A stretch of DNA of 40,314 bases from an uncultured Bacillales bacterium (GTDB lineage Bacteria; Bacillota_I; Bacilli_A; RFN20; CAG-826): the NCBI GenBank assembly GCA_946625055.1, contig CAMOSS010000002.1:1-40314 (forward strand), written 5' to 3'. This document shows, piece after piece, positions 19,191-37,578 of the stretch (the stretch's first letter is position 1; each line of letters begins with the position of its first letter). The notes beneath the pieces were generated by a model. It had not been told where the DNA came from and did not search any database. It was given only the letters and a program-made list of their open reading frames with translations. Made by a program: the position numbers and the translations under genes.

Positions 19191-19226
19191 ATAATTACCA
19201 AAAAACTACTAATAAGGAGAAAAAGT

Positions 19227-23866: not shown

Positions 23867-23883
23867 TTAGTAGTTATTTAGTT
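23867..23883 (+). repeat. TTAGTA-N5-TTAGTT phased direct repeat starting right after the xseB stop
   Basis: TTAGTA at 23867-23872 and TTAGTT at 23878-23883, period 11 bp. ACTAATTAGT (23862-23871) is a perfect 10-bp palindrome spanning the TAA stop. Confidence 0.7.
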
Positions 23884-23969: not shown

Positions 23970-25154
23970 ATGAGCAAAGTAATCGTCCATATTGATTTAA
24001 ATATGTTCTTCGTTAGATGTGAGGAAATCAAGGATCCTAGTCTTGTCGGAAAGTGCGTCGCTATCGGGCATGAAGGAAGAAGCGGGATTGTTTCAACGTG
24101 TTCCTATGAAGCAAGGAAATATGGCGTTCATAGTGGAATGCCAATGTTCCAAGCCACAAAGGCATGTAAGAACCTTATCATCATTCCTGGCGATTATAAG
24201 TTTTATCGTGTGATGTCTCACTCATTCATCTCTTTTTTAAAGAGATATACCAAACTTATCGAGCAGGCATCCATCGATGAATGCTATTGTGACTTCACAG
24301 AGCAATTAAAAGGAAAGAAAGACATCATTCAATATTTCAAAGATTTACAAAACTCTTTATACAAAGAGACAGGTTTAATGTGTTCCATTGGAGTAGCCCC
24401 AACTAAGTTCTTGGCTAAAATGGGATCTGACTATAAAAAACCAATGGGTATAACAATCATAAGAAAAAGAGACATCCCTACCATATTATATCCTTTGGAT
24501 ATATCACAAATGTTTGGTGTTGGTAAGAAAAGCGTTCCTCGTTTGAAGAAATTAGGCATCAATACGATTGGTGATTTAAAAAAGAGGATGGATGAACATA
24601 ATAAAGATGTTTTTAACTCTTTCGGAAAGTTTTATTCAACACTAGAAGATTGGCTTAATGGAAAAGGTGATGACATGATTGATATGAATCCTTGGGATCC
24701 AAAATCAATTGGCAATTCAACAACTCTTCCTCATGACACAGACGATATAAATGAAATAAAAGAATATTTTTATTCTTTATGTATGGAAGTATCAAAAAGA
24801 GCCCAAGACGAAGATAAGATTGGTTCGACCATCCAAATAGTGGTTAAGGATGTTAACTTTGTTTCTAAGAACAAATCCATAACAATGGATGCCCCAACCA
24901 ATTCGTTTAAAACTATATACGCGAACGCGGTCAGGTTATATGAAGAGAACTTCTTAGGAACTCAAGTCCGTTTAGTGGGTGTCACTCTTCAAAATCTTGT
25001 CTCTAAAAGAGACATGACCATTCAAATGACTTTATTTAATTATGAAGAACACGAAAGTGAATCTCAAACGAAGCTTTTGATTAATGAACTTAATAGAAAA
25101 CTAAAGAAGCCATCTCTAAAGAGAGCCTCGGAATTGGAGGAAGATAAAAAATGA
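23970..25154 (+). CDS. dinB: Y-family DNA polymerase IV
   Basis: HIDLNMFF (compare DMNSFY in the Bacillus homolog) and the SIDECY catalytic pair, with a little-finger C-terminus. The track start at 23943 is a TTG. The first ATG at 23970 gives the family-typical N-terminus. Confidence 0.9.
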   Translation: MSKVIVHIDLNMFFVRCEEIKDPSLVGKCVAIGHEGRSGIVSTCSYEARKYGVHSGMPMFQATKACKNLIIIPGDYKFYRVMSHSFISFLKRYTKLIEQASIDECYCDFTEQLKGKKDIIQYFKDLQNSLYKETGLMCSIGVAPTKFLAKMGSDYKKPMGITIIRKRDIPTILYPLDISQMFGVGKKSVPRLKKLGINTIGDLKKRMDEHNKDVFNSFGKFYSTLEDWLNGKGDDMIDMNPWDPKSIGNSTTLPHDTDDINEIKEYFYSLCMEVSKRAQDEDKIGSTIQIVVKDVNFVSKNKSITMDAPTNSFKTIYANAVRLYEENFLGTQVRLVGVTLQNLVSKRDMTIQMTLFNYEEHESESQTKLLINELNRKLKKPSLKRASELEEDKK

Positions 25155-26029
25155 GAATCGATGATGCCCTAGATTTATATTCCCAATTCCTCATCGCAGA
25201 AAAAGGGCTTTCAATTCAAACTGCCAAATCGTACATCAACGATATTTTTCAATTCGCAACATTCTTGCAAAAAGACTTTGTTGAGCAATTAGAAACAGAT
25301 GATCTTCCAGCTTTCATCAAGTATAGACTCTCTATCGGTAAAACTGTTTCAACAGTGGCTAGAGAAATGTCTTCAATTAAGTCTTTCTTTATCTTTCTCA
25401 AGAAAGATGGATATTACGAAGGAGATATTCCTAAGGTTGAATCGATTAAAAAGCCTGAAACATTGCCGACATGTCTATCTGTTGAAGATGTGGAGTTACT
25501 ACTAGGCGCACCAAATATGGAAAAAGATAGTGGCATCAGGGATAAAGCAATGCTTGAACTCATGTATGCAACTGGTTTACGTGTTAGTGAACTCCTTTCT
25601 TTAGAAAAGAATAGAGTCAATCTTGAAAGAGGTATTGTCAGCGTTATCGGTAAAGGCTCAAAAGAAAGAAAAGTTCCAATGGGAGACTTTGCTGCTGACT
25701 ATGTCAGGAAGTATATTGATGAAGTTCGTTCTCATAATAGAGGGCGTGGTTCTAAATATTTGTTTCTAAATAAAGCAGGAAAGCCGTTATCAAGACAATA
25801 TTTCTTTAAACAAATTAAGAAATATGCCTTTGAGGTCGGTATCGAAGATAATATTTCACCTCACACATTAAGACACTGCTTCGCCACCCATCTATTAGAG
25901 AATGGAGCGGATTTAAGATCTGTCCAGGAAATGCTTGGACACACTAATATTGCAACAACACAAATCTACACGAACATTTCAACCAAAAGAATTGTCAGTG
26001 TATATGATTTGTATATGAATAAAAAATAA
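25151..26029 (+). CDS. xerD: Tyrosine recombinase XerD/XerC family
   Basis: SAM-like N-terminal domain. Catalytic motifs ATGLRVSEL, HTLRHCFATHLL, LGHTNIATTQIYT. ATGA overlap with dinB. Confidence 0.88.
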   Translation: MRIDDALDLYSQFLIAEKGLSIQTAKSYINDIFQFATFLQKDFVEQLETDDLPAFIKYRLSIGKTVSTVAREMSSIKSFFIFLKKDGYYEGDIPKVESIKKPETLPTCLSVEDVELLLGAPNMEKDSGIRDKAMLELMYATGLRVSELLSLEKNRVNLERGIVSVIGKGSKERKVPMGDFAADYVRKYIDEVRSHNRGRGSKYLFLNKAGKPLSRQYFFKQIKKYAFEVGIEDNISPHTLRHCFATHLLENGADLRSVQEMLGHTNIATTQIYTNISTKRIVSVYDLYMNKK

Positions 26030-27306: not shown

Positions 27307-27329
27307 AAGACACCTTTGGTGTCTTTTTT
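27307..27329 (+). terminator. Rho-independent terminator after deoB
   Basis: aagacacc ttt ggtgtctt followed by TTTTG. Confidence 0.85.
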
Positions 27330-27439: not shown

Positions 27440-27828
27440 TTGAAAAGAAAACAATTCAGAAGACATTTTAGGATTTATTTCGTCAATAATCATCCAGCCT
27501 ATATCGTCGATGAGGAAGGCAATAAATACGTGTTTCATCGTGTGACTCATTCAAAAACAACTGGAGGAAGAAAAAAATTATAAAAGACAACCCTCTTAAA
27601 ACTGGAGGAAAAGGAAAAACATTTATTGTTAGAAGAGAAGAAAAAGACAAAAAAGGAAGATTCAGCCTTTTTGAAATCGAAACAAAGCCTGGAGTTGATA
27701 TTTCATATCCAGAAATAAAAAAAGCTAGAAGGGTACAGACTAGACATGAATCAAATCATGGTCGTACAACAATAACATCTAGCAAAAACATTGAATCAAA
27801 TAACTATAGAAAAAACAAGGAAAAATAA
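27440..27828 (+). pseudogene. Small very basic protein gene split by a -1 frameshift at an A7 tract (pseudogene, phase-variable gene or recoded gene)
   Basis: SD GGAGG (27426-27430) precedes a TTG at 27440. Frame 0 stops at TAA 27581-27583 after 47 codons. The -1 frame is open from 27526 to TAA 27826-27828 but has no start codon. The two frames join across A7 (27571-27577). The 11-mer AACTGGAGGAA occurs in both halves, 41 nt apart, and encodes T-G-G in the respective frames. Confidence 0.6.
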
Positions 27829-27944
27829 AAAGCTGGCGGATCACAGAATAGCAACCATTACGGTGCAAACGTGAATAATGTAACAACCAGCAAAATTATT
27901 AAATCAAAAACGGAGCACAGATTCAATAAAAAATGGAGACTAGT

Positions 27945-28475
27945 ATGAAAAAGACAATTGAAGTAAACGAAAACACAACCGAAGAAAAAGAAAAAAGAAA
28001 GGCAGTAGCGTTAAGAAATCAAATCGAATGGATAAAAAGGCAACTTGATTATCTCAATTTCTCAAAAGATTACAATTTGAGGCTAGATATCAAGAAGGGA
28101 GAGATCTATGAATTCGATTGGGGCATCAATGTGAACGCCGAATTTTCCAATCGACATTATGGAGTTGTGTTAAAAGACTCAAGCGCAATAAACCCATTAG
28201 TCTTGGTTTGCCCATTGAAGACTAAAAAGAAAACAATGAACACTTGGCCAAGCATGGATCTAGGAATTATCGATTGCTTGAATACAGAAAAAGAGACTCT
28301 AGCAATAGTGAACCAAACACGTTCAATAGATAAGTTAAGATTGTTTTCAAGAAGTATAATTGGTAATACAGATAATCTAAACGATAATCCACCAAGATTA
28401 ACAGAAGAATTAACTAATGAAATTTTAACTACATATATTAAGTATATAAGTGGCGTAACCATAAAAATTCTGTAA
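27945..28475 (+). CDS. MazF/PemK-superfamily protein with an N-terminal extension (putative endoribonuclease toxin)
   Basis: KKGEIYEFDWGINVNAEFSNRHYGVVL...NPLVLVCPLKTKK...ETLAIVNQTRSIDKLRL aligns by eye to B. subtilis MazF ([26 protein letters not shown]...AIVAAITAQ...DSVILLEQIRTIDKQRL). SD GGAG precedes the ATG at 27945. The track start at 27933 has no SD. Confidence 0.7.
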   Translation: MKKTIEVNENTTEEKEKRKAVALRNQIEWIKRQLDYLNFSKDYNLRLDIKKGEIYEFDWGINVNAEFSNRHYGVVLKDSSAINPLVLVCPLKTKKKTMNTWPSMDLGIIDCLNTEKETLAIVNQTRSIDKLRLFSRSIIGNTDNLNDNPPRLTEELTNEILTTYIKYISGVTIKIL

Positions 28476-28500: not shown

Positions 28501-28533
28501 TTAGTACTTTGTTAGTAGTTTTTTAGTAACTTG
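28501..28533 (+). repeat. Three perfect TTAGTA hexamers at an exact 11-bp period
   Basis: TTAGTActttg TTAGTAgtttt TTAGTAacttg, with hexamers at 28501, 28512 and 28523. An inverted copy TACTAA is at 28554-28559. Confidence 0.8.
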
Positions 28534-28564
28534 AATATGTGGGAAAGTCTACTTACTAACTGTG

Positions 28565-28602
28565 GGAATACGGACGAAATATCAGTATCGTATTCCTTTT
28601 TT
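28565..28602 (+). terminator. Rho-independent terminator of the island transcript
   Basis: ggaatacg / cgtattcc 8-bp stem with a 16-nt loop, followed by TTTTTTATT. Confidence 0.7.
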
Positions 28603-28746
28603 ATTAGATTAAATCTTATTTATTTAGTTATTAGTTTACATAATGACTATTATGCGAAGTTATCTATGTTTTAAAAAATGAGTGGGAAATGTGGAATCTA
28701 TTACTTCTACTCCAAACTGTCATTTCTGCGATCCTCAAAAAATAAA

Positions 28747-28835: not shown

Positions 28836-29924
28836 TTATTTGTGGGATAAATAATTATCGAAACATTTCTTGGTTAATCTGTTGTTTATGTCTTTTCTAT
28901 TGCCTTCAAGGAATTCTTTGTTGGCTTGAAGCACTATGACGAACCCTTCTTCGTCATTTTGAAGGCAAGAATTAATCAAATCTGTGGAATCAAAGCCTCT
29001 TGTTGGCTCAATTTTATCTGCTGCATAGATTATTTTTGCTAGTCTGGACATTGGATAGTTCCCTGTAGCGTGATATTTAATTGCTTCCACTATGTCTTCT
29101 CCCATTCCGAACTCTTCTTTTGCAATATATGATCCGATAAATTGGTGATAGCTAAACGCTGGCAAATCAGCATACTCACTAAAGTGAGTATTCATTAATT
29201 CTTTGCTTTTCTCTTTTTCCACTTCTTTTCCTATGTCATGAAGTAAACCAGCATAAAAAGCTTTTAAAGGATGTTCCATATTGTTAGAAAGAGCAATTCT
29301 AAAGGCTAGCAAAGCCACTTGTTTGGAATGTTCATATCTATTCTTAGACAATCTTCCTTTAATAGCCTCAAGCATGTATAAATCATTCGCTGCGATGTAC
29401 TCAACTAAAGAATATGGGAGATAGTCATTTGCCTTCATTGATTTAAAATCAGACGAAGAAACATAAATGTCTTCTCCTTTGATCTCTCTCATGTGATATT
29501 TAGTGATATTTTCATTATTATCATCAAAATCTTCTCTTGAGTAATATACGATTTGAATCAAATTAGCGATTTCATCAGCGTTTTTCCATAAATGGAAATC
29601 TCTAACTTGATCTCCTCCAATTAAAAGATAAAGTTCATCATTGGGATATTCTTTTTTGAAATGCTTAACTGTATCGATTGAGTAATTCTTTTCTTTGTTT
29701 GTCGTGCTTTCATATAAAGAAAGTGAGAATCTTGGATAATCTTTGATAAGGAGATTAATCATCTCAACTTTTTGATTAAAGCTGACACTCGTGTCTTTCC
29801 AGACAGAAATAACTGCAGGAACAAAAATAACATCAGCGTCCAGTTGTTCTGAAGCCGCTGAAGCCATTTTTATGTGCCCAAGATGAATTGGGTCGAATGC
29901 CCCGCCAAATATTATTTTTCTCAT
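28836..29924 (-). CDS. nadD: Fused nicotinate-nucleotide adenylyltransferase NadD and HD-domain YqeK (Ap4A hydrolase family)
   Basis: N-terminal GGAFDPIHLGH nucleotidyltransferase motif. The C-terminal half carries the HD motif HS...GLLHDIGK...KYHA. ATGA overlap with the yhbY stop. Confidence 0.88.
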   Translation of the reverse strand: MRKIIFGGAFDPIHLGHIKMASAASEQLDADVIFVPAVISVWKDTSVSFNQKVEMINLLIKDYPRFSLSLYESTTNKEKNYSIDTVKHFKKEYPNDELYLLIGGDQVRDFHLWKNADEIANLIQIVYYSREDFDDNNENITKYHMREIKGEDIYVSSSDFKSMKANDYLPYSLVEYIAANDLYMLEAIKGRLSKNRYEHSKQVALLAFRIALSNNMEHPLKAFYAGLLHDIGKEVEKEKSKELMNTHFSEYADLPAFSYHQFIGSYIAKEEFGMGEDIVEAIKYHATGNYPMSRLAKIIYAADKIEPTRGFDSTDLINSCLQNDEEGFVIVLQANKEFLEGNRKDINNRLTKKCFDNYLSHK

Positions 29925-32011: not shown

Positions 32012-32044
32012 ATATCTACTAAATATCTACTAATTATTGACTAA
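32012..32044 (-). repeat. Three 11-bp tandem units carrying TTAGTA (minus-strand sense), beginning at the parC stop codon
   Basis: The plus strand reads atatcTACTAA atatcTACTAA ttattgACTAA. The first two 11-mers are identical. On the minus strand this is TTAGTC-N5-TTAGTA-N5-TTAGTA, and the parC TAG stop lies inside the first unit. Confidence 0.8.
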
Positions 32045-34755
32045 TCGTCGTCTAATCCTTCAAAAATTGATATTTGCTCAAAGCTTGATTCATCTTCTTG
32101 CTTTTTCTCAACTTTCGGAGTTTTCTTAGGAGCTTCAGAGATCTCTTCTTCAGGTTCTGCCACTAATTCAATAGATTCTTCCGCTGCCTCGATTGGCTCG
32201 TTGTTATCATTAAGGATAACATCATCAGTTTCAGCTTCTTCGGATTTGTCTTCAATCTCTGGATGTTCAATAACGATAACTTTTGTGTTCTTGTCGATGA
32301 CTTCCATTTCGTCATCAATGATGCTTCTAACAAGTAACTTGTTAGGAATCTTAATGTTTTTCTTAGCATTAATCGCTTCTGTTAATGTGAAATCATTAAC
32401 TTCAAGCGCGTACACGCTTTCATCTGATAAATAAAGATTCAATGATAATGATTCAACACGATATGGAATCTTCTTCGCCCCAATCAAGTTATGTGGATCG
32501 TTCTTGAAGCATGAGAAGGCAGTTTGAACTTTGCCTAGTCTTGCTGTTTTATTTATCTTCTCTATTGAGAAGATTCTTTGGCAGCCTTTATCGGTGATAA
32601 GGACAACTTTGCCTCTTTCATCATCGAGGAATGGTAACATAGTTACCACGTGTTGCTTTTTGAGCTGTCCAATTGATTTAACACCGCCAGCTTTTAATCC
32701 CACTGGAGTGATATCGTTTTCGTTGAATAATGAGCAGTTACCGCCGCTTGTTAAGACTAAGATATCACTGTTACCGCTGAAGATTTCAACAGCTGCAACT
32801 TCATCGCCAGAAAGGAGCTTCATGCATTTCACTGGTCTCGAATGACGTAGGACGTCAAACTGTGATAATTCAGTACGTTTAATCTGTCCATATTTAGAAA
32901 CAAAGCCAATATAAACGTTCTTTTTAAACTCTTTAACAACGATGGCTTTAATAATCTTTTCGCCACTGCTAATTGTGACAAATTGATTGATGTGTGTACC
33001 TTCTTCTTTCCATTTGTTTTCTGTTAAAACATAAACAGGTAAACAGATATAGTTACCTATATTTGTAAAACAAATAAGGTAATCAGTGGTCATCGCACTG
33101 CCTTTTGCCACTAAAATATCGCCAGCTTTTAAGCCTGGTAATGATTCGTTAGAACCCTTGAATGATTTGATGGAGCTTCTCTTCAAATAGCCATCACGAG
33201 AGACAGCAACCATGACTTCTTCTTTGGCGATTAAGTCACGTTTTGTATATGAGATGCCTTCACCTTTTTCAACAATCAATGTTCTTCTATCATCGCCATA
33301 TTTTTCAGCGATACCTTTAAGATCTTTAATCAAAACTCTATTGAGTTTATTCTCATCATTTAAGATTTCTGTAAGTCTTTGGATGTCCTTTTCTAATGAG
33401 GCTTTTTCTTGCTCTAAAATAAGTTCATCAGTGTGGCTTAACTTATATAAAGGCATCATTACGATGGCTTCGGCTTGTTCATTGCTTAATTCAAATCTCT
33501 TCATTAAATTGACTTTGGAATCATTTTTGTCCTTTGATTTCTTAATGATGTCAACGACTTCATTAATATTCATAGAGGCAGTGATTAAGCCATTAACAAT
33601 ATGTAATCTTTGAGTGAATTTATCGAGATCAAACTTGGATTCTCTAGTAACGACATCGACTTGGTGCTCAATATAAGCATCGATGAAATCTAATAAATTA
33701 AGTGTTTTTGGTCTTCCGTTAACAATGGCGACCATATTAGCAGAATATGAACCTTGTAATGAAGTATTCTTCATTAAATAGGCGAGAATTAGATCTGCTT
33801 TTGCGTCTTTTTTAAGGTCAACAACGATACGAATTCCCTTATAATCAGATTCATCTCTTACTTCTAAGATGCCATCAATGGCTTTTGCGTGTCTAATTTT
33901 GTCTATTTCATAGACAAGTGAAATTTTCACCACTTTATAAGGCACTTCTGTGATGATAATCTGTTGAGAATCCTTATTTGAGACAATTTCAGTTTTAGCT
34001 GCAATTTCGATTCTTCCACGACCTGTATTGTAGATATTATCAAGGCCTTCGCTTTGATAAATAACACCACCTGTTGGGAAATCTGGACCTAACACAAATT
34101 GCCTTAAATCCTCTACTGTCGCATTCTTGTGTTGAATACGATAAATAACAGCGTCAATAACTTCTCTAAGGTTATGAGGTGGGATTTCTGTTGCTAAAGC
34201 AACAGCAATACCTTCACTACCGTTAACTAACAAGTTAGGGAATCTTGCTGGTAAGACTACTGGTTCAAGCTCGGTATCATCGAAGTTGAGTTGCATATCA
34301 ACTGTATTTTTATCGATACCACGAACCATTTCATTTGATAACATCGCTAAACGAGATTCGGTATAACGATAAGCAGCTGGAGCATCACCATCAATTGAAC
34401 CATTATTACCTTGAAAGTCGATTAATGGGTATCTTAATTTCCAGTCTTGAGACATTCTCGCCAAAGCATCATAAATAGATGTATCACCATGAGGGTGATA
34501 AGTACCCATAACAGCACCAACGGTGTGAGCACACTTTCTGGTTGGATGGTTGATGGTATTGTTGTTTTTATACATAGAGAAGATAATTCTTCTCTGAACT
34601 GGTTTCATACCATCTCTAACATCTGGAATAGCTCTGTCTTGAATGACATATTTAGCATAGATCGCGTAGCGATCTCCCATAACTTCTTCAAGAGGTTGAG
34701 TTGAGATATTTTCTTCAAAAAGTTCGATAGGTTCTTCTATTTTCTTTTTTGCCAT
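32041..34755 (-). CDS. parC: DNA topoisomerase IV subunit A with a long acidic C-terminal tail
   Basis: GDRYAIYAKYVIQDRAIPDVRDGMKPVQRRI has the ParC-type VQRR rather than the GyrA-type VHRR. YHPHGD and AAYRYTESRL (active-site Tyr) are present. Paired with parE and adjacent to plsY, as in Bacillus. Confidence 0.85.
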   Translation of the reverse strand: MAKKKIEEPIELFEENISTQPLEEVMGDRYAIYAKYVIQDRAIPDVRDGMKPVQRRIIFSMYKNNNTINHPTRKCAHTVGAVMGTYHPHGDTSIYDALARMSQDWKLRYPLIDFQGNNGSIDGDAPAAYRYTESRLAMLSNEMVRGIDKNTVDMQLNFDDTELEPVVLPARFPNLLVNGSEGIAVALATEIPPHNLREVIDAVIYRIQHKNATVEDLRQFVLGPDFPTGGVIYQSEGLDNIYNTGRGRIEIAAKTEIVSNKDSQQIIITEVPYKVVKISLVYEIDKIRHAKAIDGILEVRDESDYKGIRIVVDLKKDAKADLILAYLMKNTSLQGSYSANMVAIVNGRPKTLNLLDFIDAYIEHQVDVVTRESKFDLDKFTQRLHIVNGLITASMNINEVVDIIKKSKDKNDSKVNLMKRFELSNEQAEAIVMMPLYKLSHTDELILEQEKASLEKDIQRLTEILNDENKLNRVLIKDLKGIAEKYGDDRRTLIVEKGEGISYTKRDLIAKEEVMVAVSRDGYLKRSSIKSFKGSNESLPGLKAGDILVAKGSAMTTDYLICFTNIGNYICLPVYVLTENKWKEEGTHINQFVTISSGEKIIKAIVVKEFKKNVYIGFVSKYGQIKRTELSQFDVLRHSRPVKCMKLLSGDEVAAVEIFSGNSDILVLTSGGNCSLFNENDITPVGLKAGGVKSIGQLKKQHVVTMLPFLDDERGKVVLITDKGCQRIFSIEKINKTARLGKVQTAFSCFKNDPHNLIGAKKIPYRVESLSLNLYLSDESVYALEVNDFTLTEAINAKKNIKIPNKLLVRSIIDDEMEVIDKNTKVIVIEHPEIEDKSEEAETDDVILNDNNEPIEAAEESIELVAEPEEEISEAPKKTPKVEKKQEDESSFEQISIFEGLDDD

Positions 34756-34756
34756 A

Positions 34757-36691
34757 CTATCTCACCTCCTCAATAAATGAATCAACTTCGTTGAAGTCGA
34801 TATTTTCTTCAATCCATTCCTTACGAACAGAAGAATCCTTACCCATGAGAATAGAAACTTCTTTTTCAACAAGAATGGCGTCTTCGATATTCACTTTGAT
34901 AAGTAATCTAGTTCTTGGATCCATTGTGGTTTCTTTAAGTTGAACAGCATCCATTTCACCAAGACCTTTATAACGTGAAATCTTGTATCCTGCTCCCACT
35001 TTTTTCTTGGCTTTTTCTAAATCAGCATCATCCCAAGCGTATTCTTGAATCATTTTATGATTCACTTCTTTGAATACTCTATATAATGGAGGAACAGCGA
35101 TAAAGACGTGACCAGATGTAATAAGTGGTCTCATATAGTGATAGAAGAATGTCAAAAGCAAAGTTTGAATGTGAGCACCATCGGTATCAGCATCGGTCAT
35201 GATGATGATTTTTCCATAGTGAATGTTCTTTACATCAAATGATTGACCATACCCTGCACCAATTGTGTTGATGATGGTCGCAAACTCTTCGTTTTTAAGC
35301 ATTCTATCTAATGGGACAGAATCAGTATTTAATGGCTTTCCACGAAGTGGAAGAATTGCTTGGTGAATTCTGTCTCTACCCTTACGAGCACTACCACCAG
35401 CGGAATCACCCTCGACGATGAAAAGTTCGTTTTTATCGTATTCTTTTGATTGGGCTGGAGTAAGTTTATCCGATAGGATAACTTCTGTTTTTGTCTTTTT
35501 AGAACTTCTTGCTTCGTCTTTTGCTTTGCGAGCAGCAATTCTTGCTGTTTGTGAATCAATACATTTTTTGATGATATTCAAAGCAAGTTCTTTATTTTCA
35601 CGTAAATAATACGTGAGTTTAGAATATAAGACGTTACTAACAATGGTCAAAGCTTGTGGAGTTCCAAGTTTTCCCTTTGTTTGACCTTCGAATTCGAGTG
35701 GTCCTTCTGGAATCTTTAAGGCGATTAAGGCAGTTAAACCTTCACGGATATCATTTCCTTCAAGTTTCTTACCTTTGAGGACTTGGGTTTCTTCACCAAA
35801 ATCATTGATCGCTCTTGTGATACCATTCCTAAATCCTGACTCATGAGTACCACCATCTCTGGTCCTTACGTTATTGACGTAAGAGTAAATATTTTCGTTA
35901 TAATCTTCGTAGCAATATTGCATAGCAATCTCTACAAAAATTCCTGTCTCTTGATCAGTGTCAGAGAAGTACATAATTGGGGTTAAAGGTCTCTTTCCTT
36001 GGGTGAGATATTCGCAGTATTCAACGATGCCATTTTCATAATAGAAGTTAGCATTTTGACCTGTTCTTTCATCCACTAAAATGAACCTTACACCCCTCAT
36101 TAAGAAGGCACTTTCTTGTAAGTGATTTGCAATAATATCGAACTTAAATTCGACAGTTGAGAAGATTTTTCCATCAGGTTGGAAACGGACATATGTACCG
36201 TGTTTTTTAGTTGTTCCAATGACTTCAAGAGGAGTTTCAATTTTGCCTCCATCAGAGAATTTCATATGGAAAATTTGGCCTTCACGGTAGACACAAACAT
36301 CTAACCAAATGCTTAAAGCATTTGTTACTGATGCACCAACACCATGTAAGCCGGCTGCTGATTTATAAACAGCACTGTTAAATTTACCACCGGCATGGAG
36401 CTCGGTGAATACAAGTTCAAGAGCTGATTTACCGGTCTCTTTATTAATTCCGGTAGGGATACCACGACCTTCATCAAGAACACTTAAAGAACCATCTTTG
36501 TGGATGGTGATTACGATCTTGTCACCGAAGCCAGAAAGAGCTTCATCGACAGCGTTATCAACCACTTCCCAAACGAGGTGATGTAACCCAGTTGAGTTGG
36601 TTGATCCGATGTACATGGCTGGTCTTTTTCTGACACCTTCAAGTCCCTGCAAAACGTGTATATCATCAGCGGTATAATTAGTAGAACTCAT
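34757..36691 (-). CDS. parE: DNA topoisomerase IV subunit B
   Basis: LQGLEGVRKRPAMYIGS, GHKL ATPase motifs, and Toprim EGDSAGG and PLRGK. The start is set at the ATG at 36691 (MSSTNY), which has an AAGGAAA SD. The 61 upstream codons of the track ORF run through the divergent promoter region. Confidence 0.85.
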   Translation of the reverse strand: MSSTNYTADDIHVLQGLEGVRKRPAMYIGSTNSTGLHHLVWEVVDNAVDEALSGFGDKIVITIHKDGSLSVLDEGRGIPTGINKETGKSALELVFTELHAGGKFNSAVYKSAAGLHGVGASVTNALSIWLDVCVYREGQIFHMKFSDGGKIETPLEVIGTTKKHGTYVRFQPDGKIFSTVEFKFDIIANHLQESAFLMRGVRFILVDERTGQNANFYYENGIVEYCEYLTQGKRPLTPIMYFSDTDQETGIFVEIAMQYCYEDYNENIYSYVNNVRTRDGGTHESGFRNGITRAINDFGEETQVLKGKKLEGNDIREGLTALIALKIPEGPLEFEGQTKGKLGTPQALTIVSNVLYSKLTYYLRENKELALNIIKKCIDSQTARIAARKAKDEARSSKKTKTEVILSDKLTPAQSKEYDKNELFIVEGDSAGGSARKGRDRIHQAILPLRGKPLNTDSVPLDRMLKNEEFATIINTIGAGYGQSFDVKNIHYGKIIIMTDADTDGAHIQTLLLTFFYHYMRPLITSGHVFIAVPPLYRVFKEVNHKMIQEYAWDDADLEKAKKKVGAGYKISRYKGLGEMDAVQLKETTMDPRTRLLIKVNIEDAILVEKEVSILMGKDSSVRKEWIEENIDFNEVDSFIEEVR

Positions 36692-36733
36692 TATAGTTTC
36701 CTTTCGAATCTTCCTAATTATAAACGAAAAAAG

Positions 36734-36763
36734 TTGCAAAATTAAAGCAATAAAGTGTATATT
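36734..36763 (+). promoter_or_regulatory. plsY promoter (TTGCAA-18-TATATT, TG-adjacent)
   Basis: TTGCAA at 36734-36739 and tgTATATT at 36756-36763. Downstream, tctgc/gcaga flanks the SD GAAGGAGG. Confidence 0.5.
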
Positions 36764-36788
36764 ATATGTCTGCGAAGGAGGCAGAATT

Positions 36789-37565
36789 ATGGATATTATT
36801 TTATATAATATACTCGCTGGATTTATTTGCGTAATTATTGGATATTTATTTGGTTCGATACCTTTTTCAATCATAATTGGAAAAGTATTTTTTAAGAAAG
36901 ACCCTCGTGATTATGGCTCAAAAAATGCAGGTGGCACTAACTGCATGAGAGTTTTCGGAAAAGGATGGGGTATTCTTGTCATTTGTTTAGATGGTTTGAA
37001 GACTGTCATTCCTGTCTGGATGTGTTTCTTAATCATGACATATGCAAAATTTGGTGGTCAAACACTCCTTCCAGATGTTAGAACCTGGCTCGAAACAGGT
37101 GTTGATGCCTACACAATCAAATATCCAGCCTATTGGTTGTCCGCTGCCGGTGTTACTTTAGGACACTGTTACCCATTATTTGCCGGATTTAAAGGCGGAA
37201 AAGGTGCAAGCAATATTTGGGGTTTATTATTCACCACTTCTTGGATGCACTTATTAATCCCAATGGCAGCCTTCTTCATCGTCATGAAAAAGACAAAATA
37301 TATGTCATTATCTGTCCTTGTTTCACACCTTATCGCCACTATTACTCAATGGACCATCACCATATTAATTTTAACCCATGTTCTTCCTTCATGGTTCGTG
37401 TGGTTTCAAGGATATGGACCAACATTATATCTCTGTTTGACTTCCTCAATTGTCTACACATTCTGCTTCTTAATGATGGTTATTAGACACAAAGCCAATA
37501 TTCAAAGATTAATGAACGGTACAGAAAGAAAAATGGGAGAAAAAGTTGAAACAGCAAGTAATTAG
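36789..37565 (+). CDS. plsY: Glycerol-3-phosphate acyltransferase PlsY
   Basis: GSIPFS...DPRDYGSKNAGGTNCMRV, GHCYP and FKGGKG motifs. Divergent from parE as in Bacillus (yneS). At 258 aa it is longer than the usual ~200 aa. Confidence 0.9.
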   Translation: MDIILYNILAGFICVIIGYLFGSIPFSIIIGKVFFKKDPRDYGSKNAGGTNCMRVFGKGWGILVICLDGLKTVIPVWMCFLIMTYAKFGGQTLLPDVRTWLETGVDAYTIKYPAYWLSAAGVTLGHCYPLFAGFKGGKGASNIWGLLFTTSWMHLLIPMAAFFIVMKKTKYMSLSVLVSHLIATITQWTITILILTHVLPSWFVWFQGYGPTLYLCLTSSIVYTFCFLMMVIRHKANIQRLMNGTERKMGEKVETASN

Positions 37566-37578
37566 TACTTATTTAGTA
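37562..37578 (+). repeat. TTAGTA-N5-TTAGTA phased direct repeat starting in the plsY stop codon
   Basis: TTAGTA at 37562-37567 contains the plsY TAG stop (37563-37565). The second TTAGTA is at 37573-37578. Period 11 bp. Confidence 0.75.

Follow-up and report, generated by a model that had tools for sequence, protein, structure and literature searches.

The DNA analysed here, referred to as the window, is a stretch of 40,314 nucleotides (nt) from an uncultured Bacillales bacterium (GenBank assembly GCA_946625055.1, contig CAMOSS010000002.1, positions 1 to 40,314). The gene in question is a solo coding sequence (CDS) at 27945..28475 (+) whose product resembles the MazF/PemK toxins. The call draws on the list of open reading frames (ORFs), a match to the Pfam family PF02452, structural comparison with Foldseek, more than 220 homologues of 170-200 amino acids (aa), and the ratio of nonsynonymous to synonymous substitution rates (dN/dS). 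The first ATG of the ORF lies at 27933 and gives a protein of 180 aa (27933..28475, +), and the ATG at 27945 gives one of 176 aa. The latter appears the more likely start because a Shine-Dalgarno (SD) sequence read from the DNA, GGAG, stands 6 nt ahead of it (27935..27938, +) and a 98%-identical database protein (P0001) begins MKKTIEV there. Residue numbers of the MazF-like protein count from the ATG at 27933, i.e. in the 180-aa version.

By sequence and by fold the MazF-like protein belongs to the MazF/PemK superfamily, and this assignment is firmly supported. The original prediction, made from the letters of the DNA, had placed the C-terminal part of the protein in this fold and named a profile placement outside the superfamily as the outcome that would overturn it; the profile places the protein inside. 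PF02452 (PemK_toxin) scores 26.5 bits over residues 54-141 (E-value 7.8e-6), where the gathering cut-off is 23.1 bits. This segment is the β-barrel core of the PemK/MazF fold (28092..28355, +), for which the family profile also matches chains of MoxT, EndoA, and S. aureus MazF. Only the family profile reaches the MazF chains; the single protein sequence has no match in the Protein Data Bank (PDB), and scans of the protein with NCBIfam and PADLOC likewise gave no match. An AlphaFold2 model built from 30 homologues, with a mean predicted local distance difference test score (pLDDT) of 75.8, contains a helix at residues 16-46, a β core, and a C-terminal helix at residues 158-173. The SH3-like β-barrel and C-terminal helix of the MazF/PemK superfamily are both present in this model. 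When it was compared with the PDB using Foldseek, the top 50 matches were all MazF/PemK-family toxins, with target-normalised template modelling (TM) scores of 0.64-0.80 and E-values down to 5e-6. The best of these (target-normalised TM about 0.73-0.80) are the MazF/MoxT proteins of S. aureus, B. subtilis, B. cereus, and B. anthracis, for which values of 0.75-0.80 are reached. At E<=1e-3, 48 PDB chains match the model and every one is a MazF/PemK-family toxin (TM 0.7-0.8, target-normalised). The peptides by which the protein had been recognised by eye, FSNRHYGVV, PLKT, QTRSIDKLRL, and KKTIEVNENTTEEKEKRK...LDYLN, are all found in the translation, and the N-terminal extension of ~50 aa to which attention had been drawn is predicted to form the long helix at residues 16-46.

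This extension is a feature of a whole group of proteins. A search of 5.8 billion proteins recovered the more than 220 relatives, nearly all of them 170-200 aa long and nearly all with PF02452 precomputed. A profile search of 1.84 billion cluster representatives returned 642 matches at E<=1e-3, 122 of them at E<=1e-10. Among the best 150 of these 642 representatives, most are 180-290 aa long and match from profile position about 15-45, i.e. with the helix included. The conserved N-terminal α-helix (residues 16-46; 27978..28070, +) is drawn from the alignment and from the AlphaFold2 model, in which it has a pLDDT of 71-83. Among 30 aligned relatives its core, QLEWIKRQLEY, hardly varies, with W33, R36, and Y40 invariant, and the ~20-25 residues preceding the core are variable. 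Distant representatives keep W33 in 82 of the 95 sequences aligned at this position and Y40 in 74 of 100. The helix, amphipathic and ~30 residues long, is connected to the β-barrel through a short linker. It displays a heptad pattern (L27, I31, I34, L38, L41), and its amino-acid sequence is identical in strains whose synonymous sites differ by ~18% (pS 0.18, dS 0.20).

Residue conservation across the branch was counted over 129 representatives at 50% identity. In these, E70, H75, P94, S/T97, G56, G64, G111, Q128, K134, and R136 are invariant or nearly so. Alignment by hidden Markov model (HMM) sets E70 opposite E20 and H75 opposite R25 of Bacillus MazF, which places His75 (codon 28155..28157, +) at the position of the catalytic Arg25, which acts as general acid/base and is the equivalent of Arg29 in E. 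coli MazF. His is found at position 75 in 125 of the 129 representatives; conservation does not extend to R74 beside it. For Bacillus MazF, experiments support Arg25 and Thr48 as the catalytic pair, and MazF4 of M. tuberculosis has a Lys variant at the position of the catalytic Arg (PMC7354611). The codons of Lys96 and Thr97 (28218..28223, +), which form part of the PLK[T/S] motif, align with Thr48-Ala49 of Bacillus MazF, with K96 opposite Thr48 and T97 opposite Ala49 in a register that could be off by one residue. Position 97 is Ser or Thr in 123/129 representatives, and position 96 is Lys, Thr, or Ser (Thr or Ser in 71/129). A variable insert sits ahead of the last helix in the MazF-like protein. 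Judged from these alignments, a distinct branch marked by a tethered N-terminal helix (W-x6-Y) and by a His replacing the catalytic Arg is firmly supported. No description of this long solo branch was found in the literature searched, and its database labels are generic only, reading 'PemK/MazF family toxin' or 'antitoxin mazE-like'.

Scanning one genome for each species yielded 53 orthologous loci, each from another assembly. These are metagenome-assembled genomes from rumen, gut, and digesters that are labelled as Bacilli, Erysipelotrichaceae, Coprobacillus sp. CAG:826, or 'Mollicutes'. All 53 loci have the same order, consisting of dinB-xerD-deoB, a gap of 0-3 kb, the MazF-like gene, and then the convergent nadD/yqeK-yhbY-yqeH-yqeG. 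Counting all relatives, more than 55 species-level genomes of gut and rumen Bacilli have the gene at this place, with dif between it and nadD/yqeK. The gap between deoB and the gene is variable, being either about 35-140 nt or occupied by an ATP-binding cassette (ABC) transporter binding protein and permease, sometimes with a Crp-like regulator; no antitoxin is encoded in it. Between the gene and dif there is non-coding DNA only. In the window, no ORF for an AbrB- or ribbon-helix-helix (RHH)-type antitoxin lies on either side of the gene according to the ORF list, Pfam, PHROG, and PADLOC, in agreement with the original prediction that a canonical antitoxin is missing. That prediction had also proposed a survey of homologues for conserved neighbours, and the 53 loci share their synteny and have no conserved partner gene: none contains a co-transcribed antitoxin gene, and no small ORF is conserved downstream. 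That the MazF-like gene is solo is firmly supported in every context examined. In the window a bidirectional intrinsic terminator found by terminator scan lies 3' of deoB (27307..27325, on both strands), and the MazF-like gene is therefore not co-transcribed with deoB. Two conserved downstream 'peptides', ..VNIIDIMRS.. and ..ITSHNVHYVN.., were discarded, as they arise from translating both strands of the dif site. As a separate observation on the neighbouring genes, NadD (nicotinate-nucleotide adenylyltransferase) and the HD-domain hydrolase YqeK are fused in a single 362-aa ORF (28836-29924, -), and this fusion is kept in all related loci; in B. subtilis nadD and yqeK are separate adjacent genes.

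The distribution of the gene is that of a stable chromosomal gene. A scan for the dif pattern also recovered relatives that share the xerD-deoB-dif-nadD order without the MazF-like gene, and in some of them (L140, L125, L131, L151, and L094) deoB is followed directly by dif. The absence of the gene from these syntenic relatives was confirmed by a profile search of six-frame translations. In a neighbour-joining tree of NadD/YqeK the carriers of the gene form one coherent group and the genomes without it are basal. The exceptions within the carrier group are loci cut at a contig edge and one replacement (L158). At the latter locus an unrelated predicted membrane protein of ~317 aa (L158:5603-6556) occupies the site of the gene, and the TTAGTA/TGTGG module described below is missing. 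A frameshift or in-frame stop is present in 2 of about 55 gene copies (L050, L038). Distances between pairs of MazF-like proteins correlate with the NadD distances (Spearman 0.65) and the DeoB distances (0.72) much as the two housekeeping proteins correlate with each other (0.70), and mean identity is 47% for the MazF-like protein and 46% for NadD. Comparison of the window with sister strains gives a dN/dS of 0.036 (dS 0.20), with residues 1-95 unchanged, and comparison with a 79%-identical species gives 0.061. Vertical inheritance of the gene in this clade under strong constraint is firmly supported. The pattern suggests that the gene was acquired once, long ago, and has descended vertically since, a history not typical of mobile toxin-antitoxin (TA) genes. 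Carriage at dif by an integrative mobile element exploiting Xer (IMEX) was considered and rejected, as no second dif-like site consistently flanks the gene.

Upstream of the MazF-like gene the window contains a basic ORF (27440..27828, +) that is frameshifted, starting as 27440-27583 and running on in another frame to a stop at 27828. Its 130-aa read-through sequence has an isoelectric point (pI) of 10.5 and 35 Lys and Arg residues, and 116 nt separate its stop from the ATG at 27945. The frameshift and the distance had both been reported and hold for the window; however, the ORF is intact in three near-identical sister strains (L055-L057). The frameshift lies in an A7T2 tract at 27571-27579 where the sister strains have A6T4, and could be either an assembly error or a true strain difference. 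The basic protein, of ~128 aa, belongs to a well conserved family of at least 434 proteins (60-75% identity) without a Pfam domain. In related gut Bacilli the family is encoded in housekeeping neighbourhoods, either between rpiB and a DEAD-box helicase gene or between yebC and rplM. No matches to the basic protein were found in plasmid or phage collections, Pfam, PHROG, or PADLOC, and the ORF has no counterpart in the 53 other orthologous loci. The suggestion that this protein is a new kind of partner for the toxin was consequently rejected on two grounds, its absence beside the gene in 53 other species and the occurrence of its own family in unrelated contexts. The basic ORF is a lineage-specific neighbour and no partner.

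A repeat search further identified degenerate tandem units of ~108-110 nt (27712..27932, +), which overlap both the 3' end of the basic ORF and the MazF-like gene's leader. The units are 72-78% identical and species-specific, with two in the window and three in the 95%-identical strain L055 (L055:431-763; blastn offset 107 nt). The leaders of other species, of ~100 nt, contain no such repeats. Tandem Repeats Finder (TRF) reported only trivial repeats in the window and no ToxI-like tandem repeats, as had been noted by eye, and Rfam gave no match at E<=1.

In most orthologues the gene has a short leader after the upstream terminator, in which a CCTCC-like anti-SD segment pairs with the SD while the loops and flanks are variable. 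Examples of leaders with this hairpin are L026:3710-3760, L037:3938-3988, and L040:3929-3979. At least 4 bases of the SD are paired in 27 of 38 orthologue leaders, compared with 18% of 146 control leaders from the same loci. The mean minimum free energy (MFE) is -8.2 kcal/mol for the orthologue leaders versus -4.8 kcal/mol for the controls.

The region downstream of the gene contains a canonical XerCD dif site, and the window spans the replication terminus. The site, AGTTTACATAA TGACTA TTATGCGAAGT (28633..28660, no strand assigned), was identified by its conservation, by published dif sites, by skew, and by the convergent genes. Its reverse complement, ACTTCGCATAA TAGTCA TTATGTAAACT, has an 11-6-11 layout. 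Published dif sites include ACTTCGCATAATGTATATTATGTAAAAT in Methylobacillus and GGTGCGCATAATGTATATTATGTTAAAT in E. coli (PMC2731167), and in a comparison with published sites the arm on the XerC side matches fully and the arm on the XerD side departs at one position (PMC2731167). The window contains only one zero-mismatch dif site, and genomes from many phyla have the pattern once each. The maximum of the cumulative GC skew falls at 28-30 kb, where GC and AT skew both switch sign and the genes converge. xerD (25151-26029) is located 2.6 kb to the left of dif and parE-parC (32041-36874) 3.4 kb to the right. The element is kept in about 38/42 orthologous loci, 100-175 nt past the stop codon of the MazF-like gene. 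An interpretation of the conserved 28-mer as a promoter or the 5' end of a small RNA was rejected after comparison with published dif sites and GC skew.

Between the stop codon and dif lies a non-coding module of 2-3 TTAGTA(G) copies at 11-bp spacing followed by a TGTGGAWAA box. In the window, TRF detects an array of three TTAGTA copies with 11-bp spacing (28501..28528, +) 26 nt past the stop codon. The box is TGTGGGAAA (28538..28546, +), which was found by alignment of downstream regions, has the DnaA-box-like consensus TGTGGAWAA, and is the single intergenic copy in the window. A probable intrinsic terminator for the MazF-like transcript, GGGAAUACGG...CGUAUUCC followed by U6 (28564..28602, +), comes next; in RNA folding its hairpin is present in both the MFE and the centroid structure. 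The TTAGTA pattern has seven matches in the window against 0.25 expected, and the other TTAGTA(G) repeats are at 23867-23883 (+), 32017-32044 (-), 37562-37578 (+), and 19196-19212 (-). These repeats lie a few tens of nt past stop codons, on the strand of the gene concerned, behind the MazF-like gene, parC, plsY, and the xseA region. Three TTAGTA copies at 11-nt spacing result in TAG stops in all three frames.

When arrays and boxes within 300 nt of dif are counted, syntenic loci with the gene have the TTAGTA array in 36/52 cases and the TGTGGAWAA box in 42/52, and syntenic loci without the gene have them in 13/26 and 17/26, respectively. Unrelated dif loci have them in only 1/81 and 2/81, and the combination of array, box, and dif is absent from four non-terminus loci. 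The module is present with or without the gene, and it therefore already stood next to dif when the gene entered upstream of it. The place of the gene beside dif reflects this history and is no evidence of a functional link. The module itself may be a terminus-organising or Ter-like site, or an all-frame stop. The arrays may resemble the RTP/Ter consensus of B. subtilis in its ACTAA cores, a likeness that serves as a lead.

The reading that we favour, with moderate confidence, is that the gene encodes a domesticated solo MazF-type endoribonuclease restrained in cis, the RNase activity, the toxicity, and the role of the helix all being predicted. The gene would have been acquired once in a clade of uncultured gut and rumen Bacilli, through insertion between deoB (or the ABC transporter) and the dif-adjacent non-coding module, and would have descended vertically since. 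Its product would be a sequence-specific RNase dimer that is potentially toxic and is restrained in cis instead of by a labile partner. It is predicted to be an endoribonuclease still, because the invariant residues line the active site and groove of MazF and His is a competent acid/base. Restraint may be achieved partly through low translation, imposed by the anti-SD/SD hairpin in the leader of most orthologues. Further restraint would probably come from the tethered helix, acting either as a built-in neutraliser like that of EzeT, which is discussed below, or as an element for oligomerisation or substrate selection. Release may follow from a stress or phage cue, or from removal of the N-terminus. 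The original prediction had offered three possibilities for control of the protein, namely a fused cis-acting N-terminal domain, the basic protein, and an RNA, and of these the fused domain is favoured, with neutralisation as its putative role.

A more specific form of this proposal is offered as tentative and would make the protein a single-polypeptide TA system. The W/Y helix would be a former MazE-like helix, now tethered, which fills the RNA groove of the dimer until activity is triggered, for example by proteolytic removal of the disordered N-terminus or by a product of a phage. One lineage of gut Bacilli would have domesticated such a system as a lasting core gene at the terminus, and S. 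aureus prophages would use it for exclusion or defence.

Several observations weigh against restraint in cis of an active toxin. The catalytic Arg of the β1-β2 loop of MazF is missing from the MazF-like protein, where the aligned position is His75, and an enzyme missing the canonical Arg could be altered or poor. Long-term vertical conservation at a housekeeping rate is unusual for a toxin and may mean that the protein is not toxic at all. For the helix, the N-terminal segment is basic (pI 9.1), unlike the toxin-binding tails of MazE, which are acidic. It has no detectable similarity to solved antitoxins or to the MazE models of Pfam, and its docking site is not given by the single-chain model. 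The heptad pattern would be just as compatible with a coiled-coil, one that arranges the dimer or enlarges the surface for the substrate. The window species itself has lost the SD-burying hairpin. Its leader has an MFE of only -0.7 kcal/mol and was remodelled when the basic gene and the ~108-nt tandem units were inserted. In addition, the absence of a partner was judged from 8-40 kb of context, and a distant trans-encoded antitoxin may lie beyond it. The locus also had no coverage in one metatranscriptome from a sample holding the organism.

Some of these points would suit a repurposed, non-toxic PemK fold that has ceased to be a general mRNA interferase and serves as a narrow RNA-processing factor or nucleic-acid binder, perhaps with a role related to the terminus. 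The replaced catalytic Arg and the vertical inheritance of the gene in gut Bacilli with small genomes, which resembles that of a core gene and matches NadD in rate, are consistent with this idea, as is the position of the gene, which is always 100-175 bp from dif and beside the TTAGTA-array/TGTGGAWAA module, with xerD 2-4 kb and parE-parC 3.4 kb away. However, the sister clade without the gene has both the module and dif to the same extent, and the position is therefore explained by the ancestry of the insertion site; the phage relatives, moreover, lie away from dif. It is the residues that line the RNA groove and active site of MazF that have stayed invariant, and the SD-burying leader suggests that expression must stay low. 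A repurposed, non-toxic protein is considered unlikely. An ordinary type II toxin whose antitoxin is non-adjacent, being encoded elsewhere in the genome or by the neighbouring basic ORF, is more improbable again. A solitary mazF with a distant regulator as its proposed antitoxin has a precedent in MazF-mx and MrpC, although the claim that MrpC is the antitoxin is itself disputed (PMC4803016). The basic ORF is on the same strand, 116-228 nt upstream in the window and sister strains and behind the deoB terminator, and co-transcription with the MazF-like gene is possible. Nevertheless, it is missing at the 53 other loci, its family occurs in unrelated contexts, and no small conserved ORF takes its place on either side of the gene. 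It is also frameshifted in the window while the toxin-like gene is intact and constrained. A frameshift would not be tolerated in a required antitoxin, unless it is an assembly error.

Least probable is a type III-like arrangement in which RNA from the ~108-nt upstream repeats, or from the UUAGUA array in the 3' untranslated region, neutralises the toxin. ToxN-type toxins share a Kid/MazF-like fold, two to three tandem units whose copy number differs between strains lie upstream of the gene, and three UUAGUA copies stand between the stop codon and the terminator, all of which would be in keeping with such an arrangement. The upstream repeats, however, share only 72-78% identity and lie partly within a protein-coding gene, and the 53 other species, with a spacer of ~100 nt, do not have them. 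TTAGTA arrays also lie behind parC and plsY and upstream of dif in genomes without the gene, and Rfam has no match. The RNA neutraliser that had been suggested earlier is not supported, for the same reasons, as the upstream repeats are species-specific and the TTAGTA arrays are shared with relatives that do not have the gene.

MazF is a textbook two-gene TA system, and the long solo branch breaks the usual MazF rules in that its members are always alone, have a tethered helix and an Arg to His replacement, and behave like housekeeping genes in one clade (dN/dS ~0.04). If the helix does neutralise the enzyme, the 'fused TA' logic of EzeT and CapRel would extend to MazF and the protein would be a compact, self-regulated RNase switch. 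If the helix is no neutraliser, a toxin fold would have been domesticated into a cellular RNase.

Related proteins are also found in phages. PHROG 1412, which carries the label 'antitoxin mazE-like', matches residues 8-104 of the MazF-like protein at E 8.7e-15. Using tblastn, the core GEIxxxDxGINVNxEFSNxH...PL was found in 20 records of S. aureus temperate phages, with 49% identity over the core. In phi77 (ORF017), P954 (orf02), and 23MRA (gp38) the gene is located directly upstream of the integrase in the lysogeny module, its upstream neighbours vary, and it is not near dif in any of the three. The gene coordinates are L054:2363-3076 in S. aureus phage 77 and L184:1839-2576 in P954. The protein is 237-245 aa long in phi77 and P954, and the annotated CDS of 23MRA is only about 82 aa. 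BFVD additionally contains 'PemK-like' proteins of uncultured phages of 184-266 aa that align over up to 241 columns. Pfam scores the phage proteins as PemK_toxin, whereas RefSeq and PHROG 1412 label them 'antitoxin mazE-like', and the 'antitoxin' label on the PHROG 1412 proteins is probably a misannotation. The lysogeny module next to int is the usual place of morons and exclusion genes. The S. aureus prophage homologues are candidate exclusion or defence genes. The prophage proteins belong to the same branch as the MazF-like protein and, like it, have an N-terminal extension and the invariant His and are without a canonical partner. They differ in being longer, in having Ser at the positions of R74 and K96, and in being mobile and located beside int.

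Among characterised systems, the MazF-like protein has its SH3-like barrel and sequence family in common with MazF/EndoA (NdoA) and PemK/Kid (PDB 4MDX, 4MZM, 7BXY, 4HKE). The common motifs are G-[DE]-[IV]-Y, with which the core opens, E70 (= E20), the P/I-x-[ST] strand, and QxR..DK.R near the C-terminal helix. Unlike these toxins, it has His for Arg25, an extra helix of ~30 residues with a variable tail of ~20 residues, an insert ahead of the last helix, and no mazE or pemI. Mobile or patchily distributed MazF/PemK genes also differ from the MazF-like gene, which is vertically inherited at a fixed locus. The type III toxins ToxN and AbiQ are endoribonucleases with a Kid/MazF-related fold and without a protein antitoxin. 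However, they require tandem repeats of antitoxin RNA directly upstream, whereas the MazF-like family has no family-wide repeats and no match to them by sequence or in PADLOC.

With MazF-mx of Myxococcus xanthus, the MazF-like gene shares the condition of a chromosomal mazF that is without an adjacent mazE and is part of host physiology. MazF-mx is not known to have a conserved helix at its N-terminus, and its canonical site is retained. It is a solitary chromosomal mazF whose proposed antitoxin, MrpC, is a distant transcription factor, with this claim being disputed (PMC4803016). EzeT of E. coli is a solitary zeta toxin with an N-terminal cis-antitoxin domain whose neutralising effect was shown experimentally (PMC4803016). 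Like EzeT, the MazF-like protein is solitary, longer than its relatives, and without an antitoxin gene, and in both an N-terminal segment is attached to a toxin domain that forms the C-terminal part. As in EzeT, the extra segment is fused in all members of the long solo branch and no separate antitoxin is present. EzeT belongs to an unrelated toxin family with different chemistry, that of a UDP-N-acetylglucosamine (UNAG) kinase, and cis-neutralisation, demonstrated there, is for the MazF-like protein a hypothesis only. EzeT is the nearest conceptual precedent for this gene, and MazF-mx the nearest solo MazF.

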